Source: Escherichia coli (GTDB lineage Bacteria > Pseudomonadota > Gammaproteobacteria > Enterobacterales > Enterobacteriaceae). Taken from it: a DNA stretch of 64,000 bases. The stretch lies in the NCBI RefSeq assembly GCF_048403405.1, contig NZ_CP183129.1, one strand, 5' to 3'. Positions 109 to 23,151 of this stretch are shown here, in pieces. Below the pieces are notes generated by a model. The model made no database searches. It saw nothing but the letters and a program-made list of their open reading frames with translations, and had not been told where the DNA came from. The first letter of the stretch is position 1, and every line of letters begins with the position of its first letter. Made by a program: the position numbers and the translations under genes.

Positions 109-1083
109 ATGCCAGTAATGATTAGCGGCGTGCTGTACGCCCTGTTAGCAGGGTTGATGTGGGGGCTTATTTTTGTCGGGCCGTTGATCGTGCCGGAATA
201 CCCGGCGATGTTGCAGTCTATGGGGCGTTATCTGGCGTTAGGGTTAATTGCGCTGCCCATTGCCTGGCTGGGGCGCGTGCGTCTGCGTCAGTTGGCGCGT
301 CGCGACTGGCTTACCGCCTTGATGCTCACTATGATGGGCAACCTCATTTATTACTTCTGCCTTGCCAGTGCCATTCAACGTACTGGCGCGCCTGTTTCCA
401 CGATGATTATCGGCACCCTGCCGGTGGTCATTCCTGTCTTTGCCAATCTGCTTTATAGCCAGCGCGACGGCAAACTCGCGTGGGGAAAACTCGCCCCGGC
501 ACTGATTTGTATTGGCATCGGCCTGGCGAGTGTGAATATTGCTGAGTTAAACCACGGACTCCCCGATTTTGACTGGGCACGTTATACCTCTGGCATCGTG
601 CTGGCGTTAGTTTCCGTGGTCTGCTGGGCATGGTATGCCCTGCGCAACGCCCGCTGGCTGCGGGAAAATCCCGACAAACATCCGATGATGTGGGCGACGG
701 CGCAGGCGCTGGTCACGCTGCCGGTTTCGCTTATCGGCTATCTCGTCGCTTGTTACTGGCTGAATACGCAAACGCCGGACTTCTCCCTACCTTTTGGCCC
801 CCGTCCGCTGGTGTTTATTAGTCTGATGATTGCAATAGCCGTGCTTTGCTCATGGGTTGGCGCACTCTGCTGGAACGTCGCCAGCCAGCGATTACCGACA
901 GTGATTCTCGGGCCGCTGATTGTTTTCGAAACGCTGGCAGGTTTGCTGTACACCTTTTTGTTACGCCAGCAAATGCCGCCACTAATGACGCTGAGCGGTA
1001 TCGCACTGTTAGTGGTTGGCGTGGTCATTGCGGTCAGAGCAAAACCAGAAAAACCTTTAACTGAATCTGTCTCAGAAAGTTGA
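109..1083 (+). CDS. ytfF: DMT/EamA-family inner-membrane transporter YtfF
   Basis: ORF track 109..1083, 324 aa; very hydrophobic multi-helix protein; recognised as enterobacterial YtfF from recollection; alternative in-frame ATG at 118. Confidence 0.85.
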   Translation: MPVMISGVLYALLAGLMWGLIFVGPLIVPEYPAMLQSMGRYLALGLIALPIAWLGRVRLRQLARRDWLTALMLTMMGNLIYYFCLASAIQRTGAPVSTMIIGTLPVVIPVFANLLYSQRDGKLAWGKLAPALICIGIGLASVNIAELNHGLPDFDWARYTSGIVLALVSVVCWAWYALRNARWLRENPDKHPMMWATAQALVTLPVSLIGYLVACYWLNTQTPDFSLPFGPRPLVFISLMIAIAVLCSWVGALCWNVASQRLPTVILGPLIVFETLAGLLYTFLLRQQMPPLMTLSGIALLVVGVVIAVRAKPEKPLTESVSES

Positions 1084-1141
1084 CACGCTGGCAGTGAGTT
1101 AAATAAGCCTCTGCTACGTAAGGGTTATAGCTTTTGCCTTA

Positions 1142-1164
1142 AAGATGCATTTAAAATGCATCTT
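1142..1164. promoter_or_regulatory. NsrR operator: perfect 11-1-11 inverted repeat AAGATGCATTT-A-AAATGCATCTT in the ytfE promoter
   Basis: Perfect palindrome read directly at 1142..1164, 27 nt upstream of the ytfE ATG; matches the NsrR box known for ytfE and hmp. Confidence 0.6.
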
Positions 1165-1190
1165 ATCTTATTAAGAATGAGGTATCAGCT

Positions 1191-1853
1191 ATGGCTTATC
1201 GCGACCAACCTTTAGGTGAACTGGCGCTCTCTATTCCTCGCGCTTCGGCTCTGTTTCGTAAATATGATATGGATTACTGCTGCGGCGGTAAGCAAACGCT
1301 GGCGCGTGCGGCGGCACGTAAAGAACTGGATGTTGAGGTCATTGAAGCTGAGCTGGCAAAGCTTGCTGAACAACCGATTGAGAAAGACTGGCGTAGCGCC
1401 CCGCTGGCAGAAATCATCGACCATATCATCGTGCGCTACCACGATCGTCACCGCGAGCAACTGCCGGAGCTGATCCTGCAAGCGACTAAAGTCGAACGCG
1501 TTCACGCCGACAAACCGAGCGTGCCAAAAGGGCTGACAAAATACCTGACTATGCTGCATGAAGAGCTTTCCAGCCACATGATGAAAGAAGAGCAGATCCT
1601 CTTCCCGATGATCAAACAAGGCATGGGCAGCCAGGCAATGGGGCCAATCAGCGTAATGGAAAGCGAGCACGATGAAGCGGGTGAACTGCTGGAAGTAATC
1701 AAACACACTACCAATAACGTCACACCGCCGCCGGAAGCCTGCACCACCTGGAAAGCGATGTATAACGGCATTAATGAACTGATTGATGACCTGATGGAGC
1801 ACATCAGCCTGGAAAATAATGTGCTGTTCCCGCGCGCACTGGCGGGTGAGTGA
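1191..1853 (+). CDS. ytfE: Iron-sulfur cluster repair di-iron protein YtfE (RIC)
   Basis: ORF 1191..1853, 220 aa; N-terminal MDYCCGG motif and His/Glu-rich hemerythrin-like pattern; recognised as YtfE; NsrR box immediately upstream. Confidence 0.93.
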
Positions 1854-1897: not shown

Positions 1898-3310
1898 TTA
1901 TTTCCGCAGTTCAGCAGCCCGCTTCTTACCAATAAACAACCAGCCCAGCCCCAGAGCGATAAACCACAGCGGGGTAACCAGCAGCGCCTGGCGGGTATCA
2001 TCTTCCAGTGTCAGCAGCACGACCACGAACACAAAGAATGCCATACATACCCAGCACATCAGCTTGCCGAGCGGCATCTTGTAGATTGATTTCTCATGCA
2101 AGTGCGGACGCTGTTTGCGATACACCAGGTACGAGCAAAGGATAATCGTCCAGACGAACATAAACAGAATCGCGGAAACGGTCGTGATCATCGTGAACGC
2201 ACCAATCACGCTGGGATTCACATACAGCATCACCACGCCGCCGAGCAGGCAGATGCAGGAGAAGGTCAGCCCTTTCGCGGGTACTGCGCGCTTAGAGAGT
2301 TTAGCGAACGCTTTCGGTGCCACACCTTCCTGCGCCAGACCAAACAGCATACGACTGGTAGAGAAGACGCCGCTGTTAGCGGAAGACGCCGCAGAGGTCA
2401 GCACCACAAAGTTGATCACGCTGGCAGCCGCAGGCAAACCTACCAACACAAACAGCTCAACGAACGGGCTTTTCTCCGGGACTACCGAACTCCACGGCGT
2501 CACGGACATAATCACAATCAGCGCGAAGACGTAGAACATAATGATACGGATCGGAATGGAGTTAATCGCGCGTGGCAGTGATTTCTCTGGATCTTTGGTT
2601 TCCGCAGCTGTTGTACCTACCAGCTCAATCCCTACGAAAGCGAAAACCGCTATCTGGAATCCGGCAAAGAAGCCACTTAAACCTTTCGGGAACCAGCCGC
2701 CATCATTCCACAAATGCGCGAATGACGCTTCCACACCGGTCGGTGACTGAAAGTGCATCGCCACCATGACCAGGCCGACGACAATCAGCGACACAATGGC
2801 GACGATTTTGATCATCGCAAACCAGAACTCCATCTCACCGAACATTTTCACGGTGGCGAGGTTGAGCGTCAGCAGCAGCACTATCACCGCCAGCGAGGCG
2901 ACCCAGTCGGAGAGCTCGGGGAACCAGAACTGAGCATAAGCCGTGATCGCCACCACGTCTGCCATACCGGTTACAACCCAGCAGAACCAGTAAGTCCAGC
3001 CGGTGAAATATCCTGCCCACGGCCCGAGTAAATCGGAAGCGAAGTCACTAAAAGATTTGTATTCCAGATTCGAAAGCAGCAATTCCCCCATTGCCCGCAT
3101 CACGAAAAAGAGCATAAAACCGATGATCATATAAACGAAAATGATCGACGGCCCGGCAAGGCTAATCGTTTTGCCGGACCCCATAAACAACCCCGTACCA
3201 ATGGCACCGCCAATGGCAATAAGCTGAATATGTCGGTTTGTGAGATTGCGCCGTAGCGACTGTTCAGCCGGAGCCTGATCATCGGCAACGACTTTTACCT
3301 GATCTACCAT
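1898..3310 (-). CDS. cycA: D-serine/D-alanine/glycine APC-family permease CycA
   Basis: ORF 1898..3310, 470 aa, 12-TM amino-acid permease; recognised as CycA. Confidence 0.93.
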   Translation of the reverse strand: MVDQVKVVADDQAPAEQSLRRNLTNRHIQLIAIGGAIGTGLFMGSGKTISLAGPSIIFVYMIIGFMLFFVMRAMGELLLSNLEYKSFSDFASDLLGPWAGYFTGWTYWFCWVVTGMADVVAITAYAQFWFPELSDWVASLAVIVLLLTLNLATVKMFGEMEFWFAMIKIVAIVSLIVVGLVMVAMHFQSPTGVEASFAHLWNDGGWFPKGLSGFFAGFQIAVFAFVGIELVGTTAAETKDPEKSLPRAINSIPIRIIMFYVFALIVIMSVTPWSSVVPEKSPFVELFVLVGLPAAASVINFVVLTSAASSANSGVFSTSRMLFGLAQEGVAPKAFAKLSKRAVPAKGLTFSCICLLGGVVMLYVNPSVIGAFTMITTVSAILFMFVWTIILCSYLVYRKQRPHLHEKSIYKMPLGKLMCWVCMAFFVFVVVLLTLEDDTRQALLVTPLWFIALGLGWLFIGKKRAAELRK

Positions 3311-3618
3311 GTTTTTTTCTTCCTGTACCTGTCTGTGTTGTTCAGGCTCTACGGCCTTTAGTCAGTCTATGATACGACGAATCTGTATCGGGACTCATCG
3401 ATATTAGGTAACAATACGCGGGATGAATACTAAGATTTAGATCTAATGTTAATTTTATGTTTAAAGTGAGTGTCATATCACGGTGATAACGCGAAACAGC
3501 TCACAAAAATACACGCTTACGCGGTCTTTGCAACACAAAATAGCGCCGTTTGGCAAACTGAAGGGTTTATTGCTGAATGCCTGCTCCCCTCTGGCTCGAG
3601 GGGAACAGAATGCGCTGC

Positions 3619-4239
3619 TTAGAGGATTTCCAGCAGTTCGACTTCAAACACCAGGGTGCTGAACGGAGGGATGGATGCGCCTGCGCCGCGCTCGCCATAT
3701 GCCAGTTCCTGCGGGATAGTCAGTTCCCATTTAGAACCTACCGGCATCAGAGTCAGTGCTTCAATCCAGCCAGGGATCACGCCATTAACCGGGAATTCAG
3801 CGGGTTCACCACGAGCAACGGAGCTGTCAAACACGGTGCCGTCGATCAGTTTACCGGTGTAATGAACACGAACGCGGTCGGTACGTGCCGGAATTGCGCC
3901 TTCACCCTGGTTGATCACGCGGAATTGCAGGCCAGATTCGGTGCTATTCACACCTTCTTTTTTGGCGTTTTCTTCCAGGTATTTCACACCTTCAGCAGCC
4001 ATCGCCTGGAAACGCTGACGACGAACGGCATCGGCGCGTTCGTGGATTTCACGCAGCGCGCGGTGCACCACATCAACCGGAACAGCCGGATGTTTGCCTT
4101 CCAGCGCATCGGCAATGCCTGCAACCAGTGCTTCTGGCAGCAGCCCTTCCAGGCCAGATTCACTCAGTTGTTGCCCTACCTGCAAACCAATGCCGTAGCT
4201 TGCTTGCGCTTCGATGGTGTCAAAAGTTGGGGTGGTCAT
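3619..4239 (-). CDS. fklB: FKBP-type peptidyl-prolyl cis-trans isomerase FklB
   Basis: Track ORF 3619..4398 extends upstream; internal ATG at 4239 gives MTTPTFD..., 206 aa, matching the FklB N-terminus; FKBP domain in the C-terminal half. Confidence 0.88.
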
Positions 4240-4456
4240 CGTATTTCCTTTCTTAGGGTATAAAGTAGCGGGCAGCATATCAGCCACACTTCTTTGGGTA
4301 AAACTTTGTCGCGGGAATGATGACAAATCCCGGGGAAAAAGAAACAATAGCAATATCCCGTATGAATATAATAAAGGCGGGTTTACCACGGACATCATAG
4401 CGTTAGCTTATTCATAGGCTATGATTGAGGAACAAGACGCGGAGCAGGAGGAAACC

Positions 4457-5095
4457 ATGCCCGGGCGCTTTGAACTAAAACCAACCCTGGAGAAAGTCTG
4501 GCACGCGCCAGACAATTTTCGCTTCATGGACCCGCTGCCGCCGATGCATCGTCGGGGGATCATTATTGCCGCCATTGTATTGGTGGTCGGATTTCTGCTT
4601 CCATCTGATGATACGCCCAACGCGCCGGTGGTGACGCGTGAAGCGCAGTTAGATATTCAGTCGCAATCACAACCACCGACAGAAGAACAGCTGCGGGCGC
4701 AATTAGTCACGCCACAAAATGATCCTGATCAGGTGGCTCCGGTCGCTCCAGAACCAATACAGGAAGGCCAGCCAGAAGAGCAGCCGCAACCCCCCCAAAC
4801 GCAACCATTCCAGCCAGATAGCGGAATTGATAATCAATGGCGCTCTTACCGTGTCGAACCCGGTAAAACGATGGCACAGCTGTTCCGCGACCACGGGCTG
4901 CCCGCTACCGATGTCTATGCAATGGCGCAGGTAGAAGGCGCGGGTAAGCCGCTGAGTAATTTGCAAAACGGGCAGATGGTGAAAATCCGCCAGAACGCCA
5001 GCGGCGTGGTGACGGGCTTAACCATTGATACGGGGAATAATCAACAGGTCTTGTTTACCCGCCAGCCGGATGGCAGTTTTATTCGTGCGCGGTAG
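4457..5095 (+). CDS. ytfB: Cell-division-associated OapA/LysM-domain protein YtfB
   Basis: Track ORF starts 4421; ATG at 4457 is preceded by AGGAGGA (4446..4452); 212 aa with one TM helix, a Pro/Gln-rich linker and a C-terminal OapA-like domain. Confidence 0.85.
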
Positions 5096-20795: not shown

Positions 20796-21194
20796 TTACC
20801 ATGTCATACAAGCTGCGTTAAAAATACCGCCAGCCAGTGCGGCGGTTCCCATAAACATTCCTGCTGCGGTATTGTGATTAATAATTTTTTCGCTTAATGC
20901 GGGCATATAAAGTCTGACGCCAGCAAAAACGAGTAACTGAATCACCAGTGCGATCCCGCCCCAGGCGAAATAGTCTGGAATACTCACCGCATTGATTGCC
21001 GCACTGGATAACGGGATCACGTAACCCAACAATGTACCGCTGAACGCCAGTGACGCCGCGGTATTATTGTTTTTGATTAACTGCCATTCGTTGTGCGGTG
21101 TAATTTTAGAATAGATAAACAGAAAAATAATCACCATAGCCACGCCAATAAAAAAATAGGCACTAAAGGCAAGAAGTGAATCCAGTATATGCAT
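20796..21194 (-). CDS. yjfL: DUF350 inner-membrane protein YjfL
   Basis: ATG at 21194 gives MHILDSLLAFSAYFFIGVAMV..., 132 aa, about 4 TM helices. Confidence 0.8.
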   Translation of the reverse strand: MHILDSLLAFSAYFFIGVAMVIIFLFIYSKITPHNEWQLIKNNNTAASLAFSGTLLGYVIPLSSAAINAVSIPDYFAWGGIALVIQLLVFAGVRLYMPALSEKIINHNTAAGMFMGTAALAGGIFNAACMTW

Positions 21195-21211: not shown

Positions 21212-21871
21212 TTAACCAATAATATGAAGTGATGTCAGCGGGATATCGACACCCAACGCGCGCGAAAATAACCACTCTGGCTCGCCGAGATCGTTAAAAG
21301 ATTCCTCACCATTTAGCAGCAAATATTCGTAAGTATCTTCGGTTACTTGCCGTTGGTAGCCCATGGTAAAATTATGGACCTCCCATTTGGCATGGTTTTG
21401 ATTTTCTACTTTTTCCAGCATGTAGACGGGTTCGATATTTCCCGGTTCTTCGCTGTTAAAAAATCGCTGCCAGCGTTTTTCCTGCCAGTTTAAGGTCATT
21501 GCCCCTATCGCTTTGGCATTGATCGTCTCGCGCCAGTGACTCTCTTTACTAATACCGTAGCTCTCTTCATAGACAAAGAGCTTGATATCATCAATGTCAT
21601 CAATATTTTCGCCGCCGGTGGTATTGATTTGCAGAAATTCATCGCCCGAAGTGTAGTAGCGGAAAATCTGGCTACCGCCGCCCAGATCGATGCGGCTGAC
21701 GGCGGCTACCGTAAATTCCTCACCCGGCAGCGCAATCAGCAATTCATCTTCCAGCAAACGAAACGCTAACGTGTCGAGCGTAAAACCACTATTGAGATGC
21801 AGACCCAGCGGACCGCGAGCGATAGCAGGCTTATTATCCTTGCCAAACAGACGCTGGAAAAAACCAGACAT
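21212..21871 (-). CDS. yjfK: DUF2491 protein YjfK
   Basis: ORF 21212..21871, 219 aa, soluble; recognised as YjfK. Confidence 0.8.
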   Translation of the reverse strand: MSGFFQRLFGKDNKPAIARGPLGLHLNSGFTLDTLAFRLLEDELLIALPGEEFTVAAVSRIDLGGGSQIFRYYTSGDEFLQINTTGGENIDDIDDIKLFVYEESYGISKESHWRETINAKAIGAMTLNWQEKRWQRFFNSEEPGNIEPVYMLEKVENQNHAKWEVHNFTMGYQRQVTEDTYEYLLLNGEESFNDLGEPEWLFSRALGVDIPLTSLHIIG

Positions 21872-21891
21872 ATTTTATCCTTAAAATAGTT

Positions 21892-21914
21892 GCCAGCCTT
21901 GCAGTGAGGCTGGC
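21892..21914 (-). other. Intra-operon stem-loop between yjfJ and yjfK (GCCAGCC-9 nt-GGCTGGC)
   Basis: 7-bp GC stem directly after the yjfJ stop codon, preceded on the transcript by U7 and followed 5 nt later by UUUU. Confidence 0.4.
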
Positions 21915-21921
21915 AAAAAAA

Positions 21922-22620
21922 TTACTCGCCCTGTTGGCGTTGCAGTCTTGCTAATACATCCTGGGCGCTACTTTTATTGCTACCGCCTATTCCGGCTTCC
22001 GCCAGCTTTTCATCAAGATCGCGACCGTCTGCGACTTTTTCCAACTGTGCAGCAGCATCCAGACGAGCCTGACGTTCGGCCTGACGCGTTTGCAGGCGTT
22101 TTAAGGATTCTGCCGCTGTCGAAACGCTGGAAGATGCGCCAACGGTAGAGGTCGTTACAGCCTGTTGTGCACGCTGCATGGCTTCAGTGGCTTTAACGAC
22201 TTCCATTTGCTGCTCAAACTGAGCGATACGCTGCGCTGTCGCTGTAACTGCTTTTTCCACGCCATCACGAGAGACTTCCAGATTCGACAACACTTGCTCT
22301 TCAGCGGTAATGAGATTCTCAAGGCGCGCGATTTCTTCAGCAACTTCGTTAATCAACGACGGATTAACGTTCTTGCTTAACGCTTCCAGCGCACGGGCTT
22401 CCAGACTGGCTTTGCGCTCACGTAAATCTTTCAGCTTATCGTGACTTAATTTCACCCGCGCCAGCAGATCAACGCGAGATTTTCCGGCTTTATCGAGTTC
22501 AGCTTTAGCGTCACGGATATGCTGTTCCAGCATGCGCACGCCCTGGGTTTCTTCAATGGATTCTTCCGCCTGGGAGATAAACGATTTCCCCAGCGTAAAT
22601 AAACTTTTTAAAATTCCCAT
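21922..22620 (-). CDS. yjfJ: PspA/IM30-family coiled-coil protein YjfJ
   Basis: ORF 21922..22620, 232 aa; MGILKSLF... N-terminus and heptad-rich Ala/Glu/Lys/Arg sequence resemble PspA/Vipp1. Confidence 0.85.
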   Translation of the reverse strand: MGILKSLFTLGKSFISQAEESIEETQGVRMLEQHIRDAKAELDKAGKSRVDLLARVKLSHDKLKDLRERKASLEARALEALSKNVNPSLINEVAEEIARLENLITAEEQVLSNLEVSRDGVEKAVTATAQRIAQFEQQMEVVKATEAMQRAQQAVTTSTVGASSSVSTAAESLKRLQTRQAERQARLDAAAQLEKVADGRDLDEKLAEAGIGGSNKSSAQDVLARLQRQQGE

Positions 22621-23119: not shown

Positions 23120-23151
23120 AAAAAAAAACCATCCAAATCTGGATGGTTTTT
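23120..23151 (-). terminator. Strong intrinsic terminator after rlmB (A9-CCATCCA-AATC-TGGATGG-T5; symmetric, bidirectional in form)
   Basis: 7-bp stem flanked by a 9-nt A-run and a T-run; read on the minus strand it is hairpin plus U9, directly downstream of the rlmB stop. Confidence 0.65.

Follow-up and report, generated by a model that had tools for sequence, protein, structure and literature searches.

It is well established for E. coli that 3′ hairpins can protect transcripts and that segments of one operon can decay at different rates (PMC5927463); in the malE-malF type a stable stem-loop 3′ of the upstream cistrons is followed by an AU-rich single-stranded stretch, the prediction being that upstream genes are more abundant than downstream genes. 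Leaky intra-operon Rho-independent terminators likewise place a GC-rich stem-loop between cistrons, and partial read-through is expected of them. A third system to which the present locus can be compared comes from Ravi et al. (bioRxiv 10.1101/2020.09.24.301986), whose conserved yjfI-yjfJ-(K+ channel)-yjfK-yjfL-yjfM-yjfC operon type assembles CesT/Tir-like DUF2170, PspA, DUF2491, DUF350, DUF1190 and ATP-grasp ligase families.

Here we analysed a hairpin between yjfJ and yjfK in a 64-kb stretch of the E. coli chromosome, referred to as the window. As in the malE-malF type, a stable hairpin lies 3′ of the upstream cistrons and is followed by an AU-rich single-stranded stretch, and the same abundance gradient would be predicted; unlike that type, the element is not a REP sequence, and the yjf operon stands outside the published differential-decay list, probably because it is too weakly expressed. 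With leaky terminators the hairpin shares a GC-rich stem of 8–10 bp, a 7-nt loop, an intercistronic position just past a stop codon and an A/U-only stretch with U4 after the stem, and the co-regulation of yjfIJKL matches the partial read-through expected of such elements. It departs from them in that its U-tract is interrupted and starts away from the stem base, that its classical score is negative, and that a U-run rather than an A-run lies upstream. Gene order and families are those of the operon of Ravi et al., except that in most Escherichia a 50-nt hairpin spacer stands exactly where the channel gene would be.

Layout and structure of the yjfJ-yjfK spacer

The 1-kb region around the hairpin has matches in 5339 of 5426 complete E. 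coli genomes, and the names yjfJ and yjfK follow from 100% matches to annotated E. coli genomes together with the Pfam families of the products (PspA_IM30 and DUF2491). Read along the minus strand, the junction is GGC GAG TAA TTTTTTT GCCAGCC TCACTGCAA GGCTGGC AACTATTTT AAGGA TAAAAT ATG (Table 1). The initial annotation, which had described a yjfJ stop followed by U7, a GCCAGCC/GGCUGGC hairpin and then the yjfK start, was exact on this point. Within the spacer, NC_000913.3 carries no annotation, neither a repeat nor a binding site. The upstream gene itself varies in length: E. coli YjfJ ranges from 227 to 243 aa (coding positions 21925-22620 in the window) through short in-frame tandem duplications and deletions that involve the repeats LEARA (1–3 copies), TATA and RLQTRQAERQA.

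Table 1 Features of the yjfJ-yjfK junction; positions refer to the window unless a locus is named
Feature	Coordinates	Strand	Basis
yjfJ CDS (PspA/IM30 family)	21922..22620	-	ORF list, translation, Pfam PF04012 E=5e-58, RefSeq annotation
yjfJ stop TAA	21924-21922	-	
T7 run directly 3′ of the yjfJ stop	21915..21921	-	sequence, allele survey, fold
Hairpin, extended 10-bp stem (21916-21907 / 21899-21890, loop 21906-21900)	21890..21916	-	RNAfold
5′ arm GCCAGCC	21914-21908	-	
Loop TCACTGCAA	21907-21899	-	
3′ arm GGCTGGC	21898-21892	-	
Tail AACTATTTT, an interrupted U-tract	21883..21891	-	sequence
Shine-Dalgarno AAGGA of yjfK	21882-21878	-	
AU-only palindrome TATTTTA-AGGA-TAAAATA	21871..21888	-	RNAfold (second, weak hairpin)
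yjfK ATG	21871-21869	-	
yjfK CDS (DUF2491)	21212..21871	-	ORF list, translation, Pfam, RefSeq
Deletion scar, 47 nt replacing the 1063-nt channel gene	21874..21920	-	BLAST breakpoints, residual similarity
Channel gene, L018 (equivalent of window 21920-21874)	3671-4741		
Channel gene, L019 (same equivalent)	671-1741		
Channel gene, L005 (same equivalent)	3070-4140		

Judging from the RNAfold predictions, the core stem has 7 perfect base pairs, 6 of them GC (dG −13.9 kcal/mol), while the extended 10-bp stem UUGCCAGCCU/AGGCUGGCAA with its 7-nt loop reaches about −16.5 kcal/mol for the hairpin alone; in this fold the last two T of the T7 run pair with the AA after the 3′ arm. The hairpin is a non-chance feature of the junction. 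When the 50-nt spacer was dinucleotide-shuffled 20000 times, stems of at least 7 perfect base pairs with at least 5 GC pairs arose in 55 shuffles (0.3%), and the minimum free energy of the spacer was −17.1 vs −8.9 ± 2.5 in the shuffles (z −3.3, p about 0.005). Hairpins of equal criteria number 15 in the whole window, so that finding one somewhere in 64 kb is unremarkable, and it is position and conservation that carry the weight. Downstream of the hairpin, the AU-only palindrome is predicted to hold the yjfK Shine-Dalgarno sequence in its loop and to end at the A of the ATG; across 54 E. coli contigs this stretch has no segregating site.

A sensitive blastn search recovered the element in 5316 of the 5426 complete E. 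coli genomes, with a median of 1 place per genome and never more than 2. A REP/BIME or other dispersed palindromic repeat was ruled out, as the element is single-copy and has no REP consensus, and Rfam 15 covariance models gave no match at the site even at E ≤ 10.

Relation of the spacer to a potassium-channel gene

Among the yjfJ relatives from other genomes, the 50-nt spacer was found only in Escherichia, namely in E. coli, Escherichia sp. MOD1, E. whittamii and E. marmotae. Citrobacter, Enterobacter sp. ENT03 and Atlantibacter have a 355–357-aa potassium-channel gene between yjfJ and yjfK (Pfam Ion_trans_2, TLGFGD filter). The same gene occurs in the GTDB representative 'E. coli SCPM-O-B-8794' and, intact and exactly at the hairpin site, in 19 of the 5426 complete E. 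coli genomes (0.35%; 356 aa, WP_000466338.1). Natural isolates with the channel gene include EC42405 and 2013C-4282. The gene overlaps both neighbours, by TAATG at the yjfJ end in every lineage and by ATGA at the yjfK end in most, the channel-bearing Escherichia alleles included. Kosakonia has no spacer and a TGATG overlap, Phytobacter has 5 nt, the Citrobacter-like metagenome lineage L097 has an independent 58-nt spacer, and Salmonella enterica has a 78-codon remnant in which both ends of the channel gene, 5′ and 3′, survive. Since Ravi et al. describe proteobacterial operons of this type as regularly including a potassium channel, presence of the channel gene is the ancestral state. The rationale first offered for the hairpin, a stoichiometry control between YjfJ and the products of the downstream genes, is no general requirement of the operon, because Kosakonia and Phytobacter do without the spacer and the ancestral arrangement is a channel gene with overlapping stop and start codons.

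We next compared the spacer with the channel-bearing Escherichia alleles (L018, L019 and L005), against which BLAST breakpoints fall at window positions 21921 and 21873. In end-anchored alignments the spacer resembles both ends of the channel gene, over ~24 nt at the start and ~27 nt at the end, with scores of 7–15 vs a null of −3 to −4.5 ± 4. The corresponding p-values are 0.01 for the window allele against L018 and 0.027 for the window allele against L005, and for the MG1655 and E. marmotae alleles against L018 none of 300 shuffles (0/300) reached the end-anchored score. An ungapped model gave p = 0.0015–0.042, and with cheap gaps significance falls to p = 0.01–0.07. Given this similarity to both ends of the channel gene, the 50-nt spacer is, by sequence comparison, the scar of a channel-gene deletion. 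An assignment of the hairpin arms to specific channel codons was rejected, because three alignments are about equal: a 5′ arm from channel codons 10-12 (TGCCAGC), the whole hairpin from channel-gene nt 29-63 with a 9-nt deletion, or a 3′ arm from the C-terminal GCATGGCAG. We therefore claim only the end-anchored similarity.

Several neighbouring observations concern other states of the same site. The channel-bearing E. coli haplotype is 91.5–96.9% identical to the window in yjfJ, ~93% in yjfK and 98% in yjfI, a local divergence that suggests either import by recombination or an old polymorphism. The Salmonella enterica remnant (L095 3187-3423) consists of the 5′ ~85 nt and the 3′ ~80 nt of the channel gene and is interrupted by a 22-nt perfect palindrome, GGTAGCGCGAAAGCGCGCTACC, which is absent from intact channel genes. 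In lineage L097 (3200-3257) the channel gene was lost independently, and the 58-nt spacer contains a CCTGCC/GGCAGG stem; its use as a convergent hairpin in evidence for selection was dropped, since its folding energy does not stand out from that of shuffles (z −0.75). In S. enterica subsp. arizonae (L017 3016-3493) most of the operon is deleted, and yjfJ breaks off at about codon 75, where it is fused to part of yjfL, with aidB directly after.

Constraint on stem, tail and ribosome-binding region

To place the spacer against a local yardstick, changes relative to the window were counted per part of the spacer and compared with the divergence at four-fold degenerate sites of yjfJ and yjfK. In Escherichia sp. 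MOD1, with 23% four-fold divergence, 1 of 14 stem positions and 1 of the 34 positions of stem, tail and Shine-Dalgarno sequence have changed, vs 2 of 9 in the loop. E. whittamii (29%) gave the same non-loop counts (1/14 and 1/34) with 3/9 in the loop, and in E. marmotae (37%, or more precisely 36.8%) the stem is unchanged (0/14), with 2/34 and 2/9 for the other two classes. For E. marmotae this amounts to P = 0.0016 for the stem and P = 4e-5 for the 34 non-loop positions, and for E. whittamii to P = 1e-4 for the latter; these values weaken to about 0.05 if the lowest local third-position rate (0.18) is used. Between Escherichia species the loop changes at about the neutral rate. All four Escherichia lineages that have the spacer, E. 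coli included, keep the hairpin itself, at z values from −2.5 to −3.6.

A survey of 78 Escherichia copies, taken from 73 metagenome contigs and the reference loci, yielded 11 spacer alleles. The T-run after the yjfJ stop is T6 or T7 in natural alleles, and the loop has three co-varying polymorphic sites. Variation in the stem is confined to GGCTGGT (G.U), GCCAGTC (U.G) and one C.A mismatch in E. whittamii; together with the change of the outer U-A pair to U.G in E. marmotae, 3 of 4 stem changes thus still pair as G.U. Within E. coli, nucleotide diversity (pi) is 0.17 in the loop, 0.01–0.02 in the arms and 0.036–0.081 at neighbouring third codon positions; taken alone, this variable loop and quiet stem fit constraint at a level that is statistically non-significant. 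The 11 nt before the ATG have no segregating sites, and across species 0–2 changes are found in the 20 nt of tail and Shine-Dalgarno sequence. The stem, the tail and the ribosome-binding region therefore appear, on these sequence comparisons, to be under purifying selection from which the loop is exempt. Such constraint suggests that the element is functional, and the contrast between a constrained stem and a drifting loop argues against a purely neutral relic.

One further copy of the spacer comes from a 394-nt contig assigned to 'Methylobacillus sp. MM3' (L016, NZ_LXTQ01000038.1), in which the yjfJ 3′ end is a 100% protein match and the spacer is identical to the E. coli K-12 allele. This contig is almost certainly E. 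coli contamination in the Methylobacillus assembly, judging from these identities.

Termination, transcript protection and competing roles

Given that a partial terminator or RNA-stabilising element had been proposed at this site, we examined whether the hairpin looks like one. As a GC-rich stem-loop it lies within the range of Rho-independent terminators (about 5–14 bp, loop 3–10 nt). At the 3′ base of the stem there is no uninterrupted U-tract, the tail being AACUAUUUU, or CUAUUUUAA if counted after the extended stem, and a permissive rule (5 T in 8) is the only terminator rule that this tail passes. A permissive terminator scan ranked the site first in an 8-kb region, and the predicted 8–9-nt hybrid, AACUAUUUU, is A/U everywhere except at one position. 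A d'Aubenton-Carafa-type score, in an approximate re-implementation, was −30 to −48 vs about +40 for a nearby comparison, the rlmB terminator 1.2 kb upstream. A tail variant with T->A (TATTAT) is present in 4 of the 78 natural copies; it is tolerated in nature, and this counts against the reading favoured below. Altogether the hairpin looks like a weak terminator at best, and a non-canonical intrinsic one. A terminator for the opposite strand was ruled out, as the plus strand reads hairpin and then A7. With respect to transcript protection, a stable structure does stand at the 3′ boundary, 5–7 nt past the yjfJ stop, and a candidate RNase E-type site, AU↓UUU at 21887-21883, read by eye, fits the RN↓WUU preference.

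Published data on the operon bear on the same question. Operon lists give nsrR-rnr-rlmB-yjfIJ or yjfIJ (PMC3946193, PMC10948618); they stop at yjfJ and thus place a boundary at the hairpin. In independent-component analysis of PRECISE-1K and heat-evolved strains, yjfIJKL form a single co-regulated operon (PMC12492005), which implies that transcription crosses the hairpin efficiently, so that a strong block is excluded and termination, if it occurs, can only be leaky. Adams et al. 2021 give curated Term-seq lists in which neither the junction nor the remaining yjf operon has an entry by gene name or coordinate; rlmB is likewise absent from these lists, and the absence of the junction therefore says little. 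The TERMITe and SMRT-Cappable-seq supplements have no junction entry either, and with an operon that is weakly expressed in wild type such missing 3′-end entries carry little information. The operon set of Dar & Sorek 2018 (PMC5927463) lists only nsrR-rnr-rlmB-yjfI, and the other supplementary files searched contain no yjf name. The proposal of a partial terminator or stabilising hairpin thus holds in a reduced form: the constraint on stem, tail and Shine-Dalgarno sequence and the operon lists that end at yjfJ speak for it, the poor U-tract and the negative score speak against termination, and the co-regulation of yjfIJKL leaves room for leaky termination only.

Two other hairpins of the operon deserve mention here. 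In heat-evolved E. coli, a (T)9->8 change at MG1655 4,410,053 was described as a 'yjfI promoter' mutation that up-regulates yjfIJKL (PMC12492005). The mutated T9 run corresponds to window 23120-23128 on the minus strand and is the U-tract of the rlmB intrinsic terminator, whose hairpin occupies 23152-23123 (GAAAAACCATCC-AGAT-TTGGATGGTTTTTTTTT); it lies about 35–45 nt upstream of the −35 (TTAATA) of a constitutive promoter reported by Shimada et al. (PMC3946193). Since the run is the rlmB U-tract and lies near the −35, the up-regulation could result from altered terminator read-through or UP-element phasing rather than from a change in the core promoter. The second is a terminator-like hairpin, ACCGCCG-CACTGGC-TGGCGGT followed by ATTTTTAA, on the minus strand at window 20826-20846, near the end of the yjfL coding sequence and about 30–50 nt before its stop, with an approximate d-score of −22. 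It might be related to the iModulon, which covers yjfIJKL but not yjfM/yjfC.

The reading that we tentatively favour for the yjfJ-yjfK hairpin, with confidence somewhat short of even, is that a selectively maintained intercistronic structure causes leaky intrinsic termination and/or protects the 3′ end of yjfI-yjfJ transcripts. On this reading, the common ancestor of E. coli and the cryptic Escherichia clades lost a channel gene that had been translationally coupled between yjfJ and yjfK, and the hairpin lies in the spacer that arose there, within the yjfI-yjfJ-yjfK-yjfL-yjfM-yjfC transcript. A minority of RNA polymerases would stop at (C)UAUUUU, the weak tail immediately 3′ of the stem, and RNAs with an end or a cut in the AU-rich tail would keep the hairpin as a barrier to 3′-exonucleases. 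As a consequence, the level of the yjfI-yjfJ segment, read-through from nsrR-rnr-rlmB included, would lie somewhat above that of yjfK-C, and most polymerases would continue past the hairpin. Termination, 3′-end protection and the effect on the expression ratio are what we infer from the observed structure, stability and conservation. It is conceivable, if rather doubtful, that the scar of channel loss was then exapted into a conserved regulatory hairpin that uncouples the expression of yjfI-yjfJ, the products of which are a chaperone-like and an ESCRT-III-like protein, from that of yjfK-C. For this exaptation the 19 channel-bearing E. coli genomes would offer a natural control.

An unlikely alternative, and the one that survives best, assigns the hairpin a role in translation. 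The deletion would have broken the stop/start coupling, so that yjfK needs an AU-rich tract, an AAGGA and an ATG of its own; the GC hairpin would then lock up the sequence that precedes them, so that the AU-rich initiation region remains unpaired and is shielded from the coding sequence of yjfJ, and ribosomes ending at the UAA would be released rather than scan onwards. The tail and Shine-Dalgarno region are indeed the most conserved parts of the spacer, the Shine-Dalgarno sequence is predicted to sit in the loop of the AU-only palindrome, and the overlapping TAATG and ATGA junctions of all channel-bearing relatives imply that a new initiation region was needed after the loss. This role leaves unexplained why a strong GC stem is conserved where any unstructured sequence would serve, and Kosakonia achieves coupling by a plain TGATG overlap.

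Quite improbable, in our estimate, is a neutral by-product, whether an accident of the deletion junction or a quasi-palindrome perfected by template switching, that persists because the scar is young or homogenised by recombination. Its appeal is that the spacer is the scar of a lost gene, that the independent loss in L097 also left a hairpin-folding spacer and the Salmonella remnant gained a palindromic insertion, and that the deficit of stem polymorphism within E. coli alone is non-significant. Against this, the scar is older than the E. marmotae split, at a four-fold divergence of 0.37, over which the stem has remained unchanged next to a drifting loop, and the poor z of the L097 fold indicates that such losses do not automatically yield hairpins.

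A role at the DNA level, with the 10-bp perfect inverted repeat TTGCCAGCCT-N7-AGGCTGGCAA as an operator for a dimeric protein or part of an internal yjfK promoter, is highly improbable: conserved arms around a variable spacer of fixed length would also fit a dimer site, and TTGCCA equals the −35-like TTGACA at 5 of 6 positions, but a promoter scan found no promoter-like site in the spacer, inspection by eye gave no acceptable −10 at 16–18 nt downstream (GCAACT), neither a known regulator motif nor, in NC_000913.3, an annotated binding site was found, and 3 of 4 stem substitutions are G.U-compatible transitions that break the DNA symmetry, four events being too few for a test.

Regardless of its exact mode of action, the element is, judging from its conservation and its tail, probably functional and a poor terminator. 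Beyond its origin as a scar it is an ordinary intercistronic hairpin of an already known kind; what is new is that the spacer is the remnant of a potassium-channel gene still present in neighbouring genera. The hairpin lies exactly at a disputed operon boundary, which published lists draw differently (yjfIJ vs yjfIJKL(MC)), in an operon that is a candidate heat-tolerance and membrane-stress module (PMC12492005, PMC11472167). For those who engineer, annotate or compare this operon, it is useful that the spacer is conserved in Escherichia, makes a poor terminator and marks the site of a lost channel gene. Should the exaptation reading prove true, a gene deletion would here have given rise to a regulatory element.
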